Below, piece after piece: positions 3,834-56,971 of a DNA stretch of 56,971 bases (its first letter is position 1; each line of letters begins with the position of its first letter). A program made the translations under genes and the position numbers. The stretch is taken from assembly GCA_026395215.1 (NCBI GenBank), contig JAPLZC010000010.1, positions 206,150 to 263,120 on the forward strand, in the 5' to 3' direction. The notes under the pieces are model-generated. The model was not told the origin of the DNA, searched no databases, and saw only the letters and a program-made list of their open reading frames with translations. Origin of the DNA: Candidatus Staskawiczbacteria bacterium. GTDB lineage: Bacteria; Patescibacteriota; Minisyncoccia; Minisyncoccales; Staskawiczbacteraceae.

Positions 3834-5537
3834 TTACATTTTTTCTAGCGTTTTAATCCCAAGCAACCACATACCGTTTTTCATAACAATAGTAAAAGCT
3901 TTGGTTAACGCTAGTTTATATGGTGAATATTTGTCTGTTTTATCAACTATCTTATTCTCGGCGTAATAAGTATTAAAAATTGCAGCCAACTCTGTCAAAT
4001 AAAGTGAGATAAAGTGAGGTTCGTATGCTTGACCTGCCTTTAAAACTATCTCCTGGAAACGACATATAATTTTTTCTAATTCAGTAATTTCATTTGGAAT
4101 GTTTTTGAATGAAGGCTTTATTTTTTCTGCTTTAGCTTTTCTTAGAACAGACTGCGCCCTTGTGTATGCATATTGCAAATACGGCCCAGAATCTCCTTCA
4201 AATGAAATAGATCTATCAAAATCAAAAATAATATCATGCCCAATTGATTGTTTCAAAATTGAATATTTTATAGCTCCAATTGCAACATTTTCTATGATTT
4301 CTTTTTTCTCTGTTTCTGATAATTCTCTGTCTTTAATTTTCTCTTTCACCAGCTCTTCAACTTTTCTTATCAAGGATTCTCCCGTAATAACCTTTCCTGT
4401 GCGCGAAGACATTTTCCCCTCTGGCAAACGTAACATTCCATGTCCAATGTGTTTTGTTTTCTCCGCCAGTTTTGGAGCCACCTGGCCCATTGCGCAAAGC
4501 ATAACTTTGAAATAATCATTTACTTCATTACCGGTTATAACTACCGATTGGTCATACTTATATTTATTATATTTTACTTCAGCCAATCCTAAATCTTTTG
4601 CCTCATAAGTCGGCAATCCTTCAGAGTTTATAAAAACCCTTGTGTGTAAACCCTGCCCGTCCGGCAGGCGGGCATATTTTTCACCCTTAAAAATAACCGC
4701 GTCGTTATCACCTTTCTCAAATATCCCGTCTTCCAAACCCTTCTCAACAATCTTTTTCCCAATTGGACCAGTTTGACTTTCAAAAATTAACTCATCAAAC
4801 TTTGTGCCAAGTTGTTTATAAATTCTATCGAAATACTTTAAACTCTCTTTTTTCCCTTGGTCATATAGTTTATTTATATCCTTGTCGTTTCTGGCGTATA
4901 TTTTTTTATTCAAATCCATTATTTCCTTCTTTACATTTTCGTCGTCCTCAAACATTTGCGCTCCGTAAGCATAAGCTGCTCCCCATCCTAAATTTTTTGC
5001 ACCATTAATTTTTCCCCAAATAGCTTTTGCAACGTGCATCCCAACGTCTCCTTGATAACAAACCCGTTTTACCTTGGCTCCTTGTACCTCAAAAATACGT
5101 GATAGCGATTCGCCAATTGCATTGCTCATTAAATGCCCTATGTGAAAGTCCTTAAAAGGATTCGGGTCTGTATAATCTATTATTACTTTTTTATTTTTTA
5201 ACTCCCCCCCTTTGCCGTAGCTTTTATCTATATTCTTTAAATTATCAACAAAAACTTTATCTGAAATAAAAAAATTTATAAATCCTGGACCGGCTATTTC
5301 TATTTTTGAAAATAACTTATTCTCGCCAATTTTTTGTTTTATTGAATCAGCTACTTCTCTTGCCTGCCTGCCGGCAGGCAGGGATTCTTTTCCCAGTTTT
5401 TTAGAGAGAACCAAAGCGACATTGGTTGAATAATCACCATGCATTTTGTCGTCTGGTATATCAACTGAAAATCCTTCGGGTACTTCCCCAAAATCCTTAA
5501 CTGCTTTCTCAATTATTTTTTTTATTTCTTCTTTCAT
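3834..5537 (-). CDS. argS: Arginine--tRNA ligase
   Basis: HGDYSTN, GPGFINF, PNPFKDFHIGH, KMSSRTG, GDSGPYLQY, terminal EKM. Confidence 0.97.
   Translation of the reverse strand: MKEEIKKIIEKAVKDFGEVPEGFSVDIPDDKMHGDYSTNVALVLSKKLGKESLPAGRQAREVADSIKQKIGENKLFSKIEIAGPGFINFFISDKVFVDNLKNIDKSYGKGGELKNKKVIIDYTDPNPFKDFHIGHLMSNAIGESLSRIFEVQGAKVKRVCYQGDVGMHVAKAIWGKINGAKNLGWGAAYAYGAQMFEDDENVKKEIMDLNKKIYARNDKDINKLYDQGKKESLKYFDRIYKQLGTKFDELIFESQTGPIGKKIVEKGLEDGIFEKGDNDAVIFKGEKYARLPDGQGLHTRVFINSEGLPTYEAKDLGLAEVKYNKYKYDQSVVITGNEVNDYFKVMLCAMGQVAPKLAEKTKHIGHGMLRLPEGKMSSRTGKVITGESLIRKVEELVKEKIKDRELSETEKKEIIENVAIGAIKYSILKQSIGHDIIFDFDRSISFEGDSGPYLQYAYTRAQSVLRKAKAEKIKPSFKNIPNEITELEKIICRFQEIVLKAGQAYEPHFISLYLTELAAIFNTYYAENKIVDKTDKYSPYKLALTKAFTIVMKNGMWLLGIKTLEKM
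4652..4672. repeat. Short palindromic element (LPAGRQ family variant) in frame in argS
   Basis: CCTGCCCGTCCGGCAGGCGGG, adds ARLPDGQ. Confidence 0.8.
5363..5382. repeat. Perfect 20-nt palindrome in frame in argS
   Basis: CCTGCCTGCCGGCAGGCAGG, identical at 6230 and 18053; encodes SLPAGRQA. Confidence 0.95.
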
Positions 5538-5540
5538 TTT

Positions 5541-5576
5541 ATAATCCGAATGTCATCCGAATAAATCCGAATGCTA
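5541..5576. repeat. Tandem ATCCGAAT array, downstream flank of GxxExxY gene
   Basis: Three ATCCGAAT units with 10-11 nt period; inverted copy ATTCGGAT at 5968-5975. Confidence 0.85.
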
Positions 5577-5969
5577 CTAATTAATTTTATTCAATACCCT
5601 CTTAGGATAAATATATTCTTGCCTGAAGTTTACAACTAGCCCCAACTCTTTGTTATAAGAAGCAAGATATCTTTTCATCTGGAAATAGTCCTCTTTTGTA
5701 GTCAATCTTTTGGCTTTTAAATCTACGATTATTTTATCTTCAATAATAAAGTCTGGTATGTTCCTCCTGTCCCTTTCTCCCGCGAACGAAGCTGGCAATG
5801 GCACCTCTCTCAAATAATTTATTTTATTCTCTTTCAGCGAAAATTCTAATGCGTCGGCATATTACATTTCGTTCCTATACCTTCCGAGTTTGTTATGAAC
5901 TCCGAAACAAAGTCCACAAATCTTATATGACAGTTCTGGATGTAAAATTTTTTCGTTTATTTGTGGCAT
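5577..5969 (-). pseudogene. GxxExxY family protein with in-frame TAA at codon 36
   Basis: MPQINEKILHPELSYKICGLCFGVHNKLGRYRNEM*YADALE...IPDFIIEDKIIVDLKA...LGLVVNF; stop at 5862-5864; 130 codons, the usual family length. Confidence 0.85.
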
Positions 5970-5993
5970 TCGGATAATATTTGTAGATTAGAA

Positions 5994-6692
5994 TTATTTA
6001 ATGGTTGTGCCGATGAATGGTTTATTATTTAAAAAGTCTTCAAGATATTCTAATTTTTTTCCGTTAAGCATTATAACCTTTAATTTCAACTTTGCTGCCA
6101 GTTTGGTGGCTATTGGGTCAAATGGCTTGTTAGCTCCAGGGCTCCACTTATCTCCCACAATTTTCTGAAAATGGTCCCAGCTGACTTCTTTCAATGGCGT
6201 TGCATTTTCAAAATTAGATGGGATTTTTACCTGCCTGCCGGCAGGCAGGTCATACACATAATCAATATTTGTTAAATTAATTATTGTTTTTGCGCCATGA
6301 TTTTTTGCAATTAACACCGCATCGTAATCTGTTGACCACCCCGGTTTCCAGCCGGCTCCCACAACAACATCTTTGCTAGTTTTTACTTTTTTTGTAGGGT
6401 CTGTAATAATTTTTGAGTAAGATCTATCGCCAAATAACTGCCTTACAACTTCTGCATTTAGCCTTGTAACATTTATTCCAATCCAATCCCTATCACTGCT
6501 CTTAGCCCCAAATTCCAAAATAGCCTTCTGATACATCCTGGCCACCTTCCCTCCCCCCACTATTATAAAAAACTTATTCTGCCCAAACCGTTTCTGCAAA
6601 ATCTGTTTAAAGCTTTTCAAAAACCCCAAGTCTATCTCCCCCGGTGCCACCAACGATCCCCCCAATGAAATTATAATAGTCTCTTTTTTCAT
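5994..6692 (-). CDS. pyrH: UMP kinase (archaeal-type)
   Basis: ISLGGS, VGGGKVAR, PGWSTDYDA, TNIDYVYD, PFDPIA; start refined to ATG 6692. Confidence 0.92.
   Translation of the reverse strand: MKKETIIISLGGSLVAPGEIDLGFLKSFKQILQKRFGQNKFFIIVGGGKVARMYQKAILEFGAKSSDRDWIGINVTRLNAEVVRQLFGDRSYSKIITDPTKKVKTSKDVVVGAGWKPGWSTDYDAVLIAKNHGAKTIINLTNIDYVYDLPAGRQVKIPSNFENATPLKEVSWDHFQKIVGDKWSPGANKPFDPIATKLAAKLKLKVIMLNGKKLEYLEDFLNNKPFIGTTIK
6230..6249. repeat. Perfect 20-nt palindrome in frame in pyrH
   Basis: CCTGCCTGCCGGCAGGCAGG; encodes DLPAGRQV. Confidence 0.95.
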
Positions 6693-6742
6693 GTTATTTA
6701 GAAATTTTATCATAAAAGAGCATAAAAATAAAGCTCTCTATA

Positions 6743-7104: not shown

Positions 7105-7548
7105 ATGAAGATATACAGTGAGAACAAGAAGGCGGGGTTTGATTATGAGATTTTGGAGCGCTATGAGGCGGGGGTGGTTTTGTTTGGACAGGAGGTTAAA
7201 TCCATAAGAACGGGGCATATAAATTTATCGGGGACTTTTGTTACAATAAGAGGTGGAGAGCCGTTTTTACTGGGGGTGAAGATACCTCCCTATCAGCCAA
7301 ACAATGCGGGAGCTGACTATAATGAAGAAAGGGACAAAAAGCTTCTTTTGAACAAAAAAGAGATAGATTATTTGATAGGAAAGACCAAAGTGAAGGGTTT
7401 TTCCCTTATACCCTTGAAAGTTTTCGACAAAAGTGGTAGGATAAAGCTTGAATTCGGATTAGCCAAGGGTAAAAAGAAATACGATAAAAAAGAGAAAATT
7501 AAGAAGCGCGACGTAGAGCGCGAGGTTAATCGCGAATTATCAGAATAA
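7105..7548 (+). CDS. smpB: SsrA-binding protein
   Basis: ENKKAGFDY...EAGVVLFGQEVKSIR...KKLLLNKKEI...GKKKYDK. Confidence 0.97.
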   Translation: MKIYSENKKAGFDYEILERYEAGVVLFGQEVKSIRTGHINLSGTFVTIRGGEPFLLGVKIPPYQPNNAGADYNEERDKKLLLNKKEIDYLIGKTKVKGFSLIPLKVFDKSGRIKLEFGLAKGKKKYDKKEKIKKRDVEREVNRELSE

Positions 7549-7899
7549 GGGAGTGACTGTTTTGATGGATAGTTCTTTAAAGTAAGGCAAGTTGAGCTTC
7601 CTTGGGGCTCATTAATCTTCCGAGGAAAAACATAATTGCTAATTTATTTAACTTTAATAAGCAACCAGCTTTAGCTTACGCTTAGGCTGCATCTTCGCCA
7701 TCAACTCCTGATAGATGGGTCGAAGGTGTTATATATCAGGATAGATAACTCCCTTCTCTGAGGAGTTATCAAAACTAAAGAGATAAAGTATCAAAAATTT
7801 TGTTAATTCTTTATTTGATACTCGAAAAACAGAATTAAATAAACTTGTAGAATTGCTTTTAAGAGTTTTCCAGACGCGAGTTCAATCTCGCCACTTCCA
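7549..7899 (+). ncRNA. ssrA: tmRNA; tag peptide ANLFNFNKQPALAYA (7638-7685)
   Basis: Acceptor stem GGGAGTG/CACTTCC-A with G3.U wobble; T-arm GCGAG-TTCAAT-CTCGC; tag ORF ending ALAYA*; directly after smpB. CCA not encoded. Confidence 0.93.
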
Positions 7900-7923
7900 C
7901 AATATAAACCTAAGATAAATAAC

Positions 7924-8430: not shown

Positions 8431-8524
8431 CACTAATATACTAATTTTATTCTAATCTACAGAAACACTAATCTACAAATTCGCATTTTCGCAGATTAGC
8501 ATAAGATTCGCAGATTAGTATTAT
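8431..8524. repeat. Inverted array CTAATCTAC x2 / GCAGATTAG x2 between infC and rpmI
   Basis: Units at 8452, 8468 and inverted at 8491, 8510; right arm 39/45 identical to 35731-35775. Confidence 0.88.
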
Positions 8525-21409: not shown

Positions 21410-23380
21410 TTATATTTCTTTTTTTACTACCGATTCCATAACAGCAAAAAACCAATCTAATAATCCATCCTTACGTTTCCAACAGTCTTTATAAAAGTTT
21501 CTACTTTTATTATTGTCCATTCTCTTTTTTAATTTTTCGGGGTTTATTCCTTTAACGCCGAGCTTTTCTGCTAAATAACCGCTTAAAATAGTCGCATCTT
21601 CCTCGGCTTCTCCCGTCAAATCTTGCAACCCACCCCCCCTTTCACCACTTTCATCAGCTATTGCATCTTTAGCCAGCTTAAAATACACATCAACCATTGA
21701 TGTTTTTTCCGGTTTATTAGCTTTACTTGTTTTTCCCTCTCCAAATTCTTTTTCTATTTTTTTCGCCCTAGCCGGAGTTTTCTCGACCGGTTTTTTTTCC
21801 GCTTCTTTTTTTATATATTCTTGGATTATTCTTTCTTTAGCTATCTGATATACTTTCTCAATTCCCCCTTCTGCCTTTTCAGGAGATTCTGCCAATTCTT
21901 TTATACGTCGCTCCATTTCTTCTTTAATTCTTTCAACACGATCTGTATCCCACATCTTTTCCAACTTTGCACGAGCCTGAGACTCAGAAAATTTATTATA
22001 ATCTCCACCGGCATTATCTACAAAATCAGCATATTCTTTCACATTCATTTCTTTATAAGATCCAGCCTGTGTTGGAACTTCCATTTTTTTCCCACCAAAC
22101 AATTGAAATCCCTTTTTCCTTATTTCGTGAGGTTTATACCCTTGTTCTAAGAGGCCATAAAATTGTTCTCCTTTTATTCCATTTTTATCGGCAAGCGTTA
22201 TTACACTTGCATGAAATAGGTCCCTATTAAATTTCTGGAATGCCTCTTCTTTTTCCTGAGCCGAAGCATATTTTTTGAATATTTCTATTTTGCCAACTTT
22301 ATTATCGTATGTTCTGTCAAATTCATACCGAGAAACTTCTAATTTAACTCCCAGCTTTTTTTGATATTTACTTCTCTGCTTTTCTGGAAGATTCAAATAT
22401 GCCTGGTATTCTTTATTAAACAATTCATTCTTTTTCTGATTTTGCTTTTCTTTTTCTCTTTGTCTTTGTCTTTCAACACCCTCTTCAATATATTTTTCTC
22501 TTGATCCATTAAACTTATCAATCCATTCAGTCGCCTTCACAGTTAAGTTTTCTCCCATTGTCTTTTCAGCAATTTCTTTCCTCATTAAAAATAATTCTTC
22601 GAGCTCTTTTGTTTTACTTGCAACAAAAATTTCTGCTGCCGCATCGCCTCCAAGCGCTTTTTCCTTTTGACTTTCAAGTTCCTTCTGCTCCTTTTCAAAT
22701 TTCTCCTGTAAATAATTTAGCAGCAAAAATGGTGTTTCCGGAGGGACATTGCCTTTTTTTATATCGGCCCTAAGCACTCCTATCCTGTCCATTCGCTCAC
22801 GCACTGTTTTATATTCTGGTTTGTTCACTTCTGCTGCAGCCCCCATACCACCTTTTTCTTTAGAACCCAAAACCAAACTGATTTTCCATTCATCGGAAGC
22901 ATTGTCGGGGATAACTCTTCCCTCCTTCTTCATTGCATCTTCGTTATTTCCAAACCACTCCAAGGCAAACTCTCTGTATAACCCATCGGCATCTTTAGCC
23001 AAAAAACCATCAGCGGCTTTTATTGTTCCGCTATCAACTTTAGTTGTCTCAACAATAATGCCTCTGACTATTTCATCTTCTTGTTTTTGAAAAAGATTTA
23101 TTTCAAGTTGTTCTTCGGTTTCAGCTTCTACTTTTTCTAAGGTGACTTCCGGTTTTGGTGCTTCTCCTTCGGGTTGTTTATCTGCTTTTTTTTCATTAAG
23201 AATTCTCTGTGCCGCTTCTGGCGTTAGCCCATTTATTTGTTTTTTAGTATAACCCTTCTCTGCTAACTGTTTTTCAATTGGACCACTAACCACTAGAGGA
23301 ATTTCCACAGGAAAATCGGCAGAATTTAATTCGCTAAAATCATTTTTCTGCTCGCTTGAACCTGGTTCTTTTTTTGCCAT
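21410..23380 (-). CDS. Large Glu/Lys-rich helical hypothetical protein
   Basis: 656 aa ORF, coiled-coil-like composition, no recognisable motif. Confidence 0.8.
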   Translation of the reverse strand: MAKKEPGSSEQKNDFSELNSADFPVEIPLVVSGPIEKQLAEKGYTKKQINGLTPEAAQRILNEKKADKQPEGEAPKPEVTLEKVEAETEEQLEINLFQKQEDEIVRGIIVETTKVDSGTIKAADGFLAKDADGLYREFALEWFGNNEDAMKKEGRVIPDNASDEWKISLVLGSKEKGGMGAAAEVNKPEYKTVRERMDRIGVLRADIKKGNVPPETPFLLLNYLQEKFEKEQKELESQKEKALGGDAAAEIFVASKTKELEELFLMRKEIAEKTMGENLTVKATEWIDKFNGSREKYIEEGVERQRQREKEKQNQKKNELFNKEYQAYLNLPEKQRSKYQKKLGVKLEVSRYEFDRTYDNKVGKIEIFKKYASAQEKEEAFQKFNRDLFHASVITLADKNGIKGEQFYGLLEQGYKPHEIRKKGFQLFGGKKMEVPTQAGSYKEMNVKEYADFVDNAGGDYNKFSESQARAKLEKMWDTDRVERIKEEMERRIKELAESPEKAEGGIEKVYQIAKERIIQEYIKKEAEKKPVEKTPARAKKIEKEFGEGKTSKANKPEKTSMVDVYFKLAKDAIADESGERGGGLQDLTGEAEEDATILSGYLAEKLGVKGINPEKLKKRMDNNKSRNFYKDCWKRKDGLLDWFFAVMESVVKKEI

Positions 23381-34759: not shown

Positions 34760-35695
34760 ATGAATAAAAATTTACTGATTATTTTAATTTCTACGTGCTT
34801 TTTTGCGGACGGGGTTTTTGCAGCAGACAGAGTAGATATTAATACAGCTTCTTTGCAACAATTAGACACTCTAACTGGAATTGGACCGGTATATGCGCAA
34901 CGTATAATAGATGGCAGGCCGTATTCTTCAATAAATGATCTAGATAATGTAAAAGGAATTGGACCGGCAACTTTGCAAAAAATAAAAGACCAAGGATTAG
35001 CCTGTGTAAATTGTTCGACGTCCGACGTCGAACAAACTCAGCCGACTCCCCCTGTGCCAACGCCCACTCCAACACCTAACACCCAAAATCCAACACCTAT
35101 AACCTACCCATCGGGCATATATATAAACGAAATTTTGCCAAATCCGACGGGGGCGGATGAAACAGACGAATATGTAGAAATTTACAACTCAAATAGTACC
35201 GATGTGGATTTGTCTGGGTGGCAGTTACAAGACAGAGCCGGTACAATAACAACCTACACAATCCCAAGCATCACCAAAATTATGGCCAACGGATTTTTAG
35301 TCCTCAAAAGACCAGAGACAAAAATAATGTTGAATAATGAACAGGATGGTTTAAACTTGCTAACACCAGATAAAAAGACCGTGGACTCTGTTAATTTTAC
35401 TTCGTCTCCTTTAGGACAATCTTATGGTAAAACATCCTCCGGATGGAGTTGGAGCACAACTCTAACACCTGGGACTATGAATATTATTACGGCTATTACA
35501 AAAGCAGTATTGCCAAAAGCAGATAATTCTGTTAAAAATAACAGTGTTACCCCGCTTGCAGCGGGTTTGAGCCAAAGCATAGATATCAACCAGACAAATC
35601 CTTGGTTTTTATTTTTTACGGTTTTGGGGGTAACGATAATTTTAGCTATATTAGTATTATTAATTAAATTAAGGTTTTTTAAAACACAACACTAA
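34760..35695 (+). CDS. ComEA-like HhH protein fused to lamin-tail domain, C-terminal TM
   Basis: VDINTAS..LDTLTGIGP..AQRII; INEILPNP...EYVEIYN...VDLSGWQL; signal peptide and C-terminal helix. Confidence 0.85.
   Translation: MNKNLLIILISTCFFADGVFAADRVDINTASLQQLDTLTGIGPVYAQRIIDGRPYSSINDLDNVKGIGPATLQKIKDQGLACVNCSTSDVEQTQPTPPVPTPTPTPNTQNPTPITYPSGIYINEILPNPTGADETDEYVEIYNSNSTDVDLSGWQLQDRAGTITTYTIPSITKIMANGFLVLKRPETKIMLNNEQDGLNLLTPDKKTVDSVNFTSSPLGQSYGKTSSGWSWSTTLTPGTMNIITAITKAVLPKADNSVKNNSVTPLAAGLSQSIDINQTNPWFLFFTVLGVTIILAILVLLIKLRFFKTQH
35011..35035. repeat. 25-nt palindrome in frame in ComEA-like gene
   Basis: TTGTTCGACGTC-C-GACGTCGAACAA; encodes CSTSDVEQ. Confidence 0.75.
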
Positions 35696-35775
35696 TCTAC
35701 GGAAAATATTCTAATCTACGGAAACACGAATTCGTATTTTTGTAGATTAGTATAAGATTTGTAGATTAGTATTAT
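35692..35775. repeat. Inverted array CTAATCTAC x2 / GTAGATTAG x2 between comEA-like gene and yebC
   Basis: Units at 35692, 35711; central palindrome ACGAATTCGT 35726-35735; inverted units at 35742, 35761. Confidence 0.9.
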
Positions 35776-56028: not shown

Positions 56029-56030
56029 AT

Positions 56031-56079
56031 TAACGGATTTCACAGATAATTTACGGATTTTCACAAATCACGGATTATC
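56031..56079. repeat. ACGGAT 9-10-nt period array, downstream flank of GxxExxY gene
   Basis: TAACGGATT TCACAGATAA TTTACGGATT TTCACAAA TCACGGATT. Confidence 0.85.
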
Positions 56080-56544
56080 TTATGAATTATTATTTTGAAT
56101 TAATGTGATAAATGTTTTGCGATTATTTGTAAAAATTGAACGGCGTATGTCTAATTCACTTGTGTTAAAATTCACTAGGTAACCTATTTCATAGGTGCTT
56201 GCTTTCAAATAAGATATTTGCTGGTTTATGTCTTGGCGGGTGGTGAAACTGCTGGCTTTAATCTCTAGAATTATTTTGTTGTAAATTACGAAATCTGGAA
56301 TATATACACCTAATGATTTTCCGGTGTCTAAAGAATATATGTTAATTCTTTTCTGTTGCTCAAAAGATATATTTTGTTTTGTAAATTCTTCTGCTAAAGC
56401 TTTTTGGTAAATTTGTTCTTTCAGACCAGCCCCATATTTATTAGCCACATTATATATTGCGCCCCTTAGTTTATAGGATAAATCTCTCTCTAAAAAACTA
56501 TCTATGTTATCCGTGTTATCTGTGATATGTGTAGATCCGTTCAT
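56080..56544 (-). CDS. GxxExxY family protein
   Basis: GAGLKEQIY, YIPDFVI...IILEIKA, YLKA...GYLVNF; N-terminal TDNTDN is repeat-encoded. Confidence 0.92.
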   Translation of the reverse strand: MNGSTHITDNTDNIDSFLERDLSYKLRGAIYNVANKYGAGLKEQIYQKALAEEFTKQNISFEQQKRINIYSLDTGKSLGVYIPDFVIYNKIILEIKASSFTTRQDINQQISYLKASTYEIGYLVNFNTSELDIRRSIFTNNRKTFITLIQNNNS

Positions 56545-56562
56545 AAATCCGTGAAAATCCGT
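56499..56562. repeat. ATCCGT 9-10-nt period array, upstream flank of GxxExxY gene
   Basis: TATCTATGT TATCCGTGT TATCTGTGA TATGTGTA GATCCGTTCATA AATCCGTGAA AATCCGT; inverted relative to 56031-56079. Confidence 0.85.
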
Positions 56563-56563
56563 T

Positions 56564-56971
56564 TTACTTAGCTCTTGTTTCCAATTTTGTGTGCATTCTT
56601 TTTAATTGACTTGCTTGGGCTTGTAAAACCGGGCCTTGGGTAATTTTTTTAATCTGAGTTCTAACAATTGGCTTGAATGGATATGGAGATTCTTTTTTCT
56701 TCCATGTGTAGTTTTTTCCGCCCATTGAAAAACCTATTGCTCCCATTATTACATTTAATATAGGAAAACCTCCAATTGTTCCAAAAGCCAAAATTGCCGT
56801 ACCACCAAAAACCAAAAAAGCCGCTATGAAAAAAAGGAAAGAAGGAAGAACAAAGTATAGTATAAAACAAACCACCCCCGCTCCCACCAAATAGAAGAAC
56901 TGCCTAAAAGATATAAAGAAAGCAATTTTAGCCTCCTGCTCAATAAATTGTGGTATAGGATACTGTTCCAT
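56564..56971 (-). CDS. PrgI family protein
   Basis: MEQYPIPQFIEQEAKI...SFRQFFYL, two TM helices, YTWKK. Confidence 0.85.
   Translation of the reverse strand: MEQYPIPQFIEQEAKIAFFISFRQFFYLVGAGVVCFILYFVLPSFLFFIAAFLVFGGTAILAFGTIGGFPILNVIMGAIGFSMGGKNYTWKKKESPYPFKPIVRTQIKKITQGPVLQAQASQLKRMHTKLETRAK

Follow-up and report, generated by a model that had tools for sequence, protein, structure and literature searches.

How does a gene for a nuclease-like protein come to lie between two essential genes, pyrH and argS, and does that protein have a hand in its own placement there? The question is raised by a stretch of 56,971 nucleotides (here called the window) from a Candidatus Staskawiczbacteria bacterium, positions 206,150 to 263,120 of contig JAPLZC010000010.1 in assembly GCA_026395215.1. 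The source genome, G000 in what follows, is a 771 kb assembly of 15 contigs, in which the window is C15:206150-263120. Between the two genes, a broken gene of the GxxExxY family is framed by arrays of short words that face each other. Very probably this is an insertion-derived, arm-framed cassette with a nuclease-fold gene, one of a family with gene-bearing and gene-less members, placed such that the stop and start codons of its neighbours survive. That window positions 5541-5997 form a repeat-framed cassette whose nuclease moves full and gene-less copies by way of the arms is, taken as a whole, an explanation that the evidence leans towards slightly.

On the coding strand, the upstream arm has the word order ATAAT-TCTAAT-CTACAAAT-ATCCGAATG. 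Its ATAAT (5993-5997) includes the pyrH stop codon TAA (5994-5996), TCTAAT/CTAATCTAC is at 5983-5991, and ATCCGAAT at 5968-5975. TTCTAATCTACAAATATTATCCGAATG comes directly after the stop (5996-5994 in coding direction), and its final three bases are the ATG (5969-5967) of the GxxExxY open reading frame (ORF). Put differently, the closing AT of ATCCGAAT plus a G is the start codon. The ORF ends in TAG TAG (5579-5574). This is followed by three copies of ATTCGGAT, at 5565-5572, 5555-5562 and 5544-5551 (10 and 11 nt apart); TATAAA and the argS ATG (5537) come next. ATCCGAAT is the reverse complement of ATTCGGAT, and the outer ends of the cassette read ATAAT...ATTAT. The mirroring extends into both ends of the ORF, where ATGCCACAAATA has its mirror image in TAGTAGCAT at the 3' end, and likewise ATCCGAATGCCACAA in TAGTAGCATTCGGAT. 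The left end supplies the pyrH stop and the right end halts 3 nt ahead of the argS ATG, which means that the operon stays readable.

A preliminary description of the window, made from its letters alone, had reported a repeat right after the pyrH stop that supplies the ATG, a triple word after the gene that is inverted relative to the upstream one, and a unit shared with gene-less arrays at 8431 and 35692. The first two are as described, and the third is correct for CTAATCTAC. This word occurs 7 times in the window where 0.38 is expected, and none of 100 shuffles reaches 7. One copy is in the cassette, and the rest are in arrays at 8452-8476 and 35692-35769. It is also present in the left arm of the cassettes of G022 and L091 and in five gene-less copies. 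CTAATCTAC therefore belongs to the cassette family's own left arm and does more than link it to other arrays. The enrichment of ATTCGGAT is weaker, with 6 matches in the window against 1.8 expected; 3 of 100 shuffles reach 6, and 4 of the 6 matches are inside the cassette. The single arms of the pyrH-argS cassette do not fold on their own as DNA.

The same junction can be inspected in relatives. A pyrH-based search of 60 of these gave 28 loci in which the pyrH-argS junction is legible, leaving out L031, which is incomplete. In 21 loci the two genes abut or overlap, typically as caATGA. Five loci hold another small ORF without such arms, and one holds a 121-nt GC-rich palindrome. The remaining one, in G022, has the same GxxExxY cassette at 75% protein identity. 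Judging from these loci, the cassette was inserted at a junction where an overlap of pyrH and argS is the normal state. The preliminary description had counted stable synteny without empty alleles as evidence against a mobile cassette, and had asked whether alleles that lack the gene retain the arms. Empty junctions turn out to be the rule, but an allele with arms and no gene is found in none of the 28 loci.

The downstream arm of G022, GTAGCATTCGGATTTATTCGGATGACATTCGGATTAT, is identical to that of G000 at 37 of 37 nt, and the upstream arm at 26 of 29. Identity over the gene is 76% and over the 3' end of pyrH 70%. Since the arms exceed both, they are more constrained than the coding sequence.

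Framing by inverted words is not restricted to this site. PF13366 (PDDEXK_3, cut-off 22 bits) was surveyed in 61 genomes, being G000 and the 60 relatives, which include 25 congeners of G000. It is present in 18 of the 61 (30 matches), and in 7 of the 25 congeners. G000 itself has four PF13366 genes, each framed by inverted arrays of a copy-specific word: ACGAAT/ATTCGT, ACGGAT/ATCCGT, CTAATCTAC/GTAGATTAG and ATCCGAAT/ATTCGGAT.

An inverted 7-mer score was calculated over 29 loci of the relatives, with one 5'-truncated copy left out. It averages 9.24 for a gene's own arms (25 of 29 above 0), 2.40 for non-cognate arms taken from different genomes, and 2.52 in direct orientation. Summed over all loci the inverted score is 268, against a mean of 14 and a maximum of 39 in 200 shuffles. 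For 775 control ORFs of G000 the same score has a mean of 0.55, and 2.5% reach 4. Set against the control ORFs, the two intact G000 copies that are visible to this score come first and about 11th. An extra inner arm explains the low score of the copy at C15:93075, and the pyrH-argS gene is missing from the ranking because its ORF is broken.

A further 80 GxxExxY loci of the same clade came from named Patescibacteria records, 73 of them usable. Over 91 non-redundant loci, 512 words (223 upstream, 289 downstream) have the expected orientation and 46 (26 and 20) the wrong one. Neighbouring words are most often 8-9 or 10-11 nt apart. Upstream, the final word runs into the ATG, and downstream the first one directly adjoins the stop. 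The preliminary description had also counted a lack of inverted arrays at GxxExxY genes elsewhere as evidence against a mobile cassette, and had asked whether the protein co-varies with its flanking repeats. The first is contradicted by the four G000 genes, the 25 loci and the polar words in the 91. The second is borne out by a Mantel correlation of protein distance with arm 6-mer profile (r 0.46, a value reached in 0 of 999 permutations), a figure that includes contributions of shared descent and of shared host flanks at orthologous sites.

Variable GxxExxY N-termini (for example MNGSTHITDNTDNIDS, window 56491-56544, and in several relatives) are the translated upstream word array. The arm thus extends over the first 5-16 codons.

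Three junctions in Patescibacteria are occupied by cassettes that combine ATCCGAAT words with the left arm ATAATYCTAATCTACRAAT..ATCCGAATG. Next to pyrH-argS in G000 and G022, these are the junction between a gene ending in ...PPNLPTE and a TraG-like ATPase gene (locus L091, 73% identity), and that between a pilB-like and a pilT-like gene (L095). The L091 junction is also the site of a CTAATCTAC-type cassette in G000, G022 and G014. Three further junctions each hold cassettes of different clades (G000b/G007a, G035a-G027a/G052a and G022a/G029a). G022 and G019 have another cassette between argS and a phosphatase gene, a junction of 5 nt in G000.

Arms are also found without a gene. A search of the 61 genomes for ATTCGGAT doublets matches five genomes. 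The cassettes of G000, G022 and G033 account for some of the hits, and five other places for the rest. These five gene-less copies are 85-95 nt long and consist of two arms head to head, ATAATCCTAATCTAC...ATCCTAATGC...GCATTCGGAT..ATTCGGAT...ATTCGGATTAT. G022 has three, G024 one and G005 one, and two of the five are at junctions that are compact in G000. In G000 itself there is only a degenerate gene-less relative of the ATTCGGAT family, at C15:31952-32030; for its three word families with an intact gene, the number of gene-less arrays is about 9, 10 and 7. Of the 61 genomes, 4 contain the CTAATCTAC doublet (16 in G000, 14 in G022, 5 in G014 and 3 in G037). Among the 26 genomes of the genus, it is confined to the 3 genomes that possess the gene clade associated with this word; these may be one lineage, and so do not count as three independent events.

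The gene-less array between infC and rpmI is absent in 19 of 19 congeners, with a gap of at most 17 nt in 14 and other inserts in 5, which makes it an insertion and not an ancestral signal. It folds weakly (z -1.9). Rfam has no match on the cassette, and only sub-threshold miRNA look-alikes on this array. Like terminal-inverted-repeat (TIR) transposons and miniature inverted-repeat transposable elements (MITEs), the family has terminal inverted repeats (ATAATCC...GGATTAT) and copies at different sites, and there are empty alleles at pyrH-argS, at an rpsF-ssb-like junction and at one further junction. The preliminary description had proposed a filled site of a repeat-bounded mobile cassette. 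This gains support from the cassettes at other junctions, and from the gene-less copies at sites that are empty in G000. The features are collected in Table 1.

Table 1. Positions of the cassette, its neighbours and related arrays (window coordinates unless a contig is given).
Feature	Position	Strand	Remarks
Cassette	5541-5997	-	GxxExxY gene with oppositely oriented word arms
Left (upstream) arm	5967..5997	-	ATAAT, TCTAAT/CTAATCTAC, CTACAAAT, ATCCGAAT; same arm in G022, L091 and five gene-less copies
GxxExxY / PDDEXK_3 pseudogene	5577..5969	-	130 codons; E34, D73 and D83-x-K85 still present
In-frame TAA, codon 36	5862..5864	-	Between E34-M35 and Y37; sole in-frame stop
Right (downstream) arm	5541..5576	-	TAG-C, ATTCGGAT x3 at 10-11-nt spacing, terminal ATTAT (5541-5545)
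pyrH, archaeal-type UMP kinase, upstream host gene	5994..6713	-	TIGR02076, 187 bits (cut-off 158)
argS, downstream host gene	3834..5537	-	Three arginyl-tRNA synthetase Pfam domains
Gene-less inverted array, sister words CTAATCTAC/GCAGATTAG	8431..8522	+	Between infC and rpmI; specific to G000
Gene-less inverted array, CTAATCTAC x2 / GTAGATTAG x2	35690..35772	+	Hairpin, DNA fold -17.1 kcal/mol, z -6.5
Second, intact GxxExxY cassette of the window	56030..56566	-	ACGGAT upstream, ATCCGT downstream; top inverted-word score of 775 ORFs
CTAATT/AATTAG arrays	C3:11841-11959, C11:52967-53073, C13:29738-29838		Outside the window

An origin of a gene-less copy by deletion was considered, because the ORF start and the relic at C15:31992-32009 are identical over 18 nt. 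It was withdrawn, as these bases belong to the mirrored arm.

Some arrays in G000 stand apart from any cassette. A fourth family of long inverted arrays, CTAATT/AATTAG, has up to 5+5 words and no matching GxxExxY gene. An rsmH-like gene (arrays at C13:20659-20713 and 21634-21689) and an rpmF-like gene (C4:22649-22722, and upstream of C4:23028) each have gene-less arrays of the ACGAAT and ACGGAT families on either side. Ordinary genes that are bracketed in this way can look 'cassette-like'.

As to the protein, the gene was scored with its in-frame stop entered as X. It matches PF13366 at 86.9 bits (E 1.7e-24) and TIGR04256 (GxxExxY, cut-off 35 bits) at 80.7 bits. In an alignment of 28 sequences, Y15, E34, D73, K85, Y101, F115 and R124 are invariant, and position 83 is D or E. 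The residues that mark a PD-(D/E)xK nuclease, namely an acidic one on helix 1, a D, and (D/E)-x-K on the central strands, are present as E34, D73 (in PDF) and D83-L-K85. The signature PDF...DLK had already been pointed out in the preliminary description. E34 and Y37 of the ExxY motif are present and invariant in the 28 sequences. The glycine of this clade is found five residues before the E and not three (GRYRNEMQY), intact orthologs included.

An AF2 model of the G022 ortholog (pLDDT 87.8) has the restriction-endonuclease-like alpha-beta-beta-beta-alpha-beta fold. Among the structural matches listed (Foldseek, VIA-align), the best are overwhelmingly PD-(D/E)xK nucleases: Cas4 SSO0001, lambda exonuclease, SwaI (Z 7.7), BglII and Hjc (Z 6.3). 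Going by this model the fold is settled as PD-(D/E)xK. The subfamily is not, since every Z is below 8 and therefore none can be named. Of the other searches, a sequence search of the PDB matched T7 endonuclease I over 48 residues (E 0.0065), too weakly to be used. PF05635 (23S IVS protein) has no match above cut-off in G000. PADLOC returns no defence family at a meaningful score, only weak Cas4-like matches (E 6e-4 or worse) on one paralog.

The family itself has been catalogued. Steczkiewicz et al. 2012 (PMC3424549) list PDDEXK_3 (PF13366) as a family whose function is unknown and which has undergone multiple transfers between divisions. The cassette gene is a clear member, and the passage on the family in that paper is silent on flanking repeats and mobility. 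In the relevant part of PMC8934634 the domain is merely named.

The stop codon in this gene occupies the second x of ExxY. Its region is without difference in contigs from two runs of a study other than the likely source, X3 (5300-6020) and X4 (5650-6026), contigs that cannot exclude rare variants. Among 48 predicted tRNAs of G000, none has a stop-reading anticodon, so no suppressor tRNA was found, and TAA is the main stop codon of this genome, terminating 344 of the 469 ORFs that have at least 200 codons. The inactivation by a single TAA, as first described, therefore withstands the independent contigs, the tRNA scan and the stop codon usage. The guess that CAA became TAA fared less well. The intact G022 ortholog does have a glutamine here, but its codon is CAG.

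Between G000 and G022 the gene has a dN/dS of 0.13/2.39 (~0.05), with synonymous sites saturated. This low ratio, together with the retained catalytic residues, suggests purifying selection over nearly all of the divergence and a late nonsense mutation. By this comparison the gene looks recently inactivated.

X3 and X4 also contain read joints that skip 457-471 nt (5534-5543 to 5993-6007). With 85% likeness and short sides, these probably come from related organisms with empty junctions, and they are not used as evidence. A separate observation from ARAGORN is that one tRNA-like gene of the 48 has a two-base anticodon call ('???', gg).

How might such a cassette move? In the likeliest mechanism, the protein would bind both arms at their phased words, much as transposases bind the several sites in the two opposed ends of a transposon, and would cut at or near the cassette ends. 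Full cassettes, and gene-less copies in trans, could then be copied or moved into stop/start junctions. For the in-trans movement, the RAYT transposases that serve REPINs would be a parallel. The nuclease-dead copy would then be a non-autonomous fossil, carried along in the pyrH-argS transcript. The link between enzyme and substrate, a nuclease acting on its own arms, is tentative, and its chances are put a little below even. Held with the same reserve is the wider proposal that GxxExxY proteins may be the mobilising nucleases of a new and widespread type of bacterial mobile DNA, namely 'word-array' cassettes of under 500 bp that enter stop/start junctions, restore both of these signals and sustain a population of gene-less hairpin copies.

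Several observations weigh against movement by the nuclease. What connects protein and words is, in every case, a correlation between sequences that are themselves related, and common descent by itself can produce such correlations. Words are not one-to-one with protein clades either, as TACGAAT is found in three of them. In the survey of 61 genomes, no GxxExxY gene was found in G005 and G024, which do have gene-less copies. The structural matches, with all Z below 8, speak to fold and not to function. No consistent target-site duplication was found; ATAA/TAA is at both ends of some copies, but not in G022, L091 or L170-L173, and the flanks are too AT-rich and diverged for a clear answer. Co-conversion around the cassette gives no signal, with the last 120 nt of G022 pyrH at 0.79 to G000 and those of G034 at 0.81.

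Then there is age. The cassettes of G000 and G022 are about as diverged as the flanking pyrH. A tree of pyrH+infC for 18 genomes is not resolved, and it does not reject G000+G022 as sisters (p-AU 0.425). One old vertical insertion thus accounts for the data as well as two gains would. A single, vertically inherited insertion is not rejected by these sequences, and recent mobility at pyrH-argS itself is hence unsupported.

A rather unlikely alternative, although the strongest of three, is that the gene and its arrays serve the host. The protein would then be a DNA- or RNA-binding or processing factor, the arrays operators or RNA punctuation, and the whole would spread by ordinary recombination. 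Long purifying selection and apparently vertical inheritance are what one would expect of such a module, as are arrays that are always between a stop and the next start. Gene-less arrays can form hairpins (z -6.5), and a contig from an RNA library covers 5544-5694 without difference, which is a weak point in favour. A host function sits uneasily however with the patchy distribution (18 of 61 genomes, 7 of 25 congeners), and with the fact that most relatives have the same junctions at 0-17 nt and no array. In G000 the gene is dispensable, being broken and fixed in the sampled population. No promoter-like site was found in 5300-6300 either, and since the terminal ATTAT overlaps the ATG of the next gene in G022 and many other loci, it cannot be the -10 box for that gene.

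A more specific reading of the arrays as promoters, with GTAGATTAG...TATTAT-ATG as -35/-10 and leaderless mRNAs, was dropped on similar grounds. These are the absence of the infC-rpmI array in all 19 congeners (14 with a gap of 17 nt or less), the overlap of ATTAT with the next ATG in G022 and many other loci, and a promoter scan with 0 sites in 5300-6300. ATTAT is enriched within 16 nt of the next start (30 of 67, against 111 of 776 control ORFs), and is read as the element's end.

It is also unlikely, and marginally more so, that the gene encodes a free-standing homing endonuclease. The nuclease would cleave the stop/start junction of genomes that lack the cassette, and repair would copy its gene into the break. 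The arms, not being its substrate, would serve expression, insulation of the operon or recombination. The seg and mob genes of phage T4 are free-standing homing endonuclease genes, and I-Ssp6803I is a homing endonuclease of the PD-(D/E)xK type. As with such genes, a small nuclease gene lies precisely between conserved genes and is polymorphic in presence among relatives. The three junctions that were each taken by cassettes of different clades, and the L091 junction, which is that of G000c, suggest preferred targets. What homing leaves unexplained are the polar arrays that are conserved beyond the gene, the gene-less copies at other junctions, and the co-occurrence of word family and gene clade. 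Framing word arrays and gene-less derivatives are not known from homing endonuclease genes. Homing would also predict co-conversion of the flanks, which is not seen at the cassette, although the divergence (dS 2.4) is too deep for this to weigh much.

Of known systems, the nearest analogue is REPIN/RAYT (REPtrons), which combines REP doublets with REP-associated tyrosine transposases (PMC3116915, PMC3337134, bioRxiv 10.1101/2022.05.22.493013). These systems share with the cassettes a single-copy enzyme gene that is flanked by inverted repeats, and the same repeats as scattered gene-less intergenic doublets. Also shared are the co-occurrence of repeat family and gene, and a long-term, largely vertical inheritance with the enzyme under purifying selection. 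The cassettes do have gene-less inverted doublets that co-occur with the gene, in genomes that are related and of which two hold orphan copies. The enzyme is another matter. The cassette gene is PF13366, with a PD-(D/E)xK fold of 130 residues, whereas RAYTs are HUH Y1 transposases, IS200-like. The arms are AT-rich words of 7-9 nt at a spacing of 8-11 nt, whereas a REP is a GC-rich palindrome of 20-30 nt. In addition, there are several gene and word families per genome, and cassette ends rebuild the stop and start of the neighbours.

Tn7-family transposons have ends with several inverted transposase-binding sites, and their TnsA is a PD-(D/E)xK nuclease. Multiple short repeats that face inward at each end, and a protein with a restriction-endonuclease fold, are thus common to both. 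Unlike Tn7, the cassette has no DDE transposase, ATPase or target selector, is shorter than 0.5 kb, and has no definable target duplication.

G000 also contains two genes with their own GC-rich palindromes, at C15:135971-136702 and C13:46980-47708, which from their sequence (no family scan) we take to be IS200-like, of the RAYT type. A classical REP/RAYT system would then coexist with the word-array cassettes, to which it is unrelated in sequence.

In a third alternative, the arms were moved by another agent (a transposase, or hairpin-driven errors of replication or recombination), and GxxExxY would be cargo, for instance an addiction or defence nuclease that occupies the loop of one copy. This fits with the gene-less copies in G005 and G024, where no GxxExxY gene was detected, with the CTAATT arrays of G000 that lack a cognate gene, and with the RAYT genes and their palindromes. 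It is improbable, given that the cargo is always of the same family (4 of 4 G000 cassettes, and the cassettes in 18 genomes), that each G000 word family with many gene-less arrays has one matching gene, that PADLOC finds no defence family at a meaningful score, and that the RAYT-flanking repeats are unrelated in sequence.

Text searches, with subscription journals outside their coverage, found no published description of these repeat-framed cassettes, so the cassette family is apparently undescribed in print. If its nuclease does mobilise it, a large orphan family, PF13366/TIGR04256, would gain both a function and a substrate. Bacteria would also gain a second counterpart of the REPIN/RAYT partnership, mechanistically unrelated to the first. 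It would also show how a selfish element can persist in the operons of extremely reduced genomes and leave these operons intact, as its ends provide the neighbour's stop and lie against the next start.

The locus is useful because the comparison is built in: the broken copy can be set beside an intact ortholog whose arms are identical, and beside many empty alleles. If GxxExxY mobilises cassettes, G000 and G022 would be a natural knock-out pair. In G000 the nuclease is dead and there is only one degenerate gene-less copy; in G022 the ortholog is intact and there are three well-kept copies.

Some further observations concern the junction and its neighbours. The pyrH-argS junction is a hot spot, with other inserts in L014, L018, L021, L023, L030 and L015. 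These are three unrelated small membrane or secreted ORFs, one of them common to three genomes, and the 121-nt GC-rich palindrome. Directly after pyrH there are two deeply diverged types of argS within one genus (L006-L034), with about 59-75% and 24-34% identity to that of G000. G022, the congener that shares the cassette, has the other argS type than G000.

A 20-nt palindrome, CCTGCCTGCCGGCAGGCAGG, lies in frame (as LPAGRQ) in both genes that flank the cassette, in argS at 5363-5382 and in pyrH at 6230-6249. It has 8 copies in the genome, and the pyrH of G022 is without it at the corresponding place. The argS of L009 (G009) has an in-frame tandem repeat of the TTTACGGGAA type in its N-terminal region. 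Elsewhere in the window, at 7105-7902, smpB is directly followed by a full-length tmRNA (RF00023, 116.6 bits), which is an ordinary arrangement.

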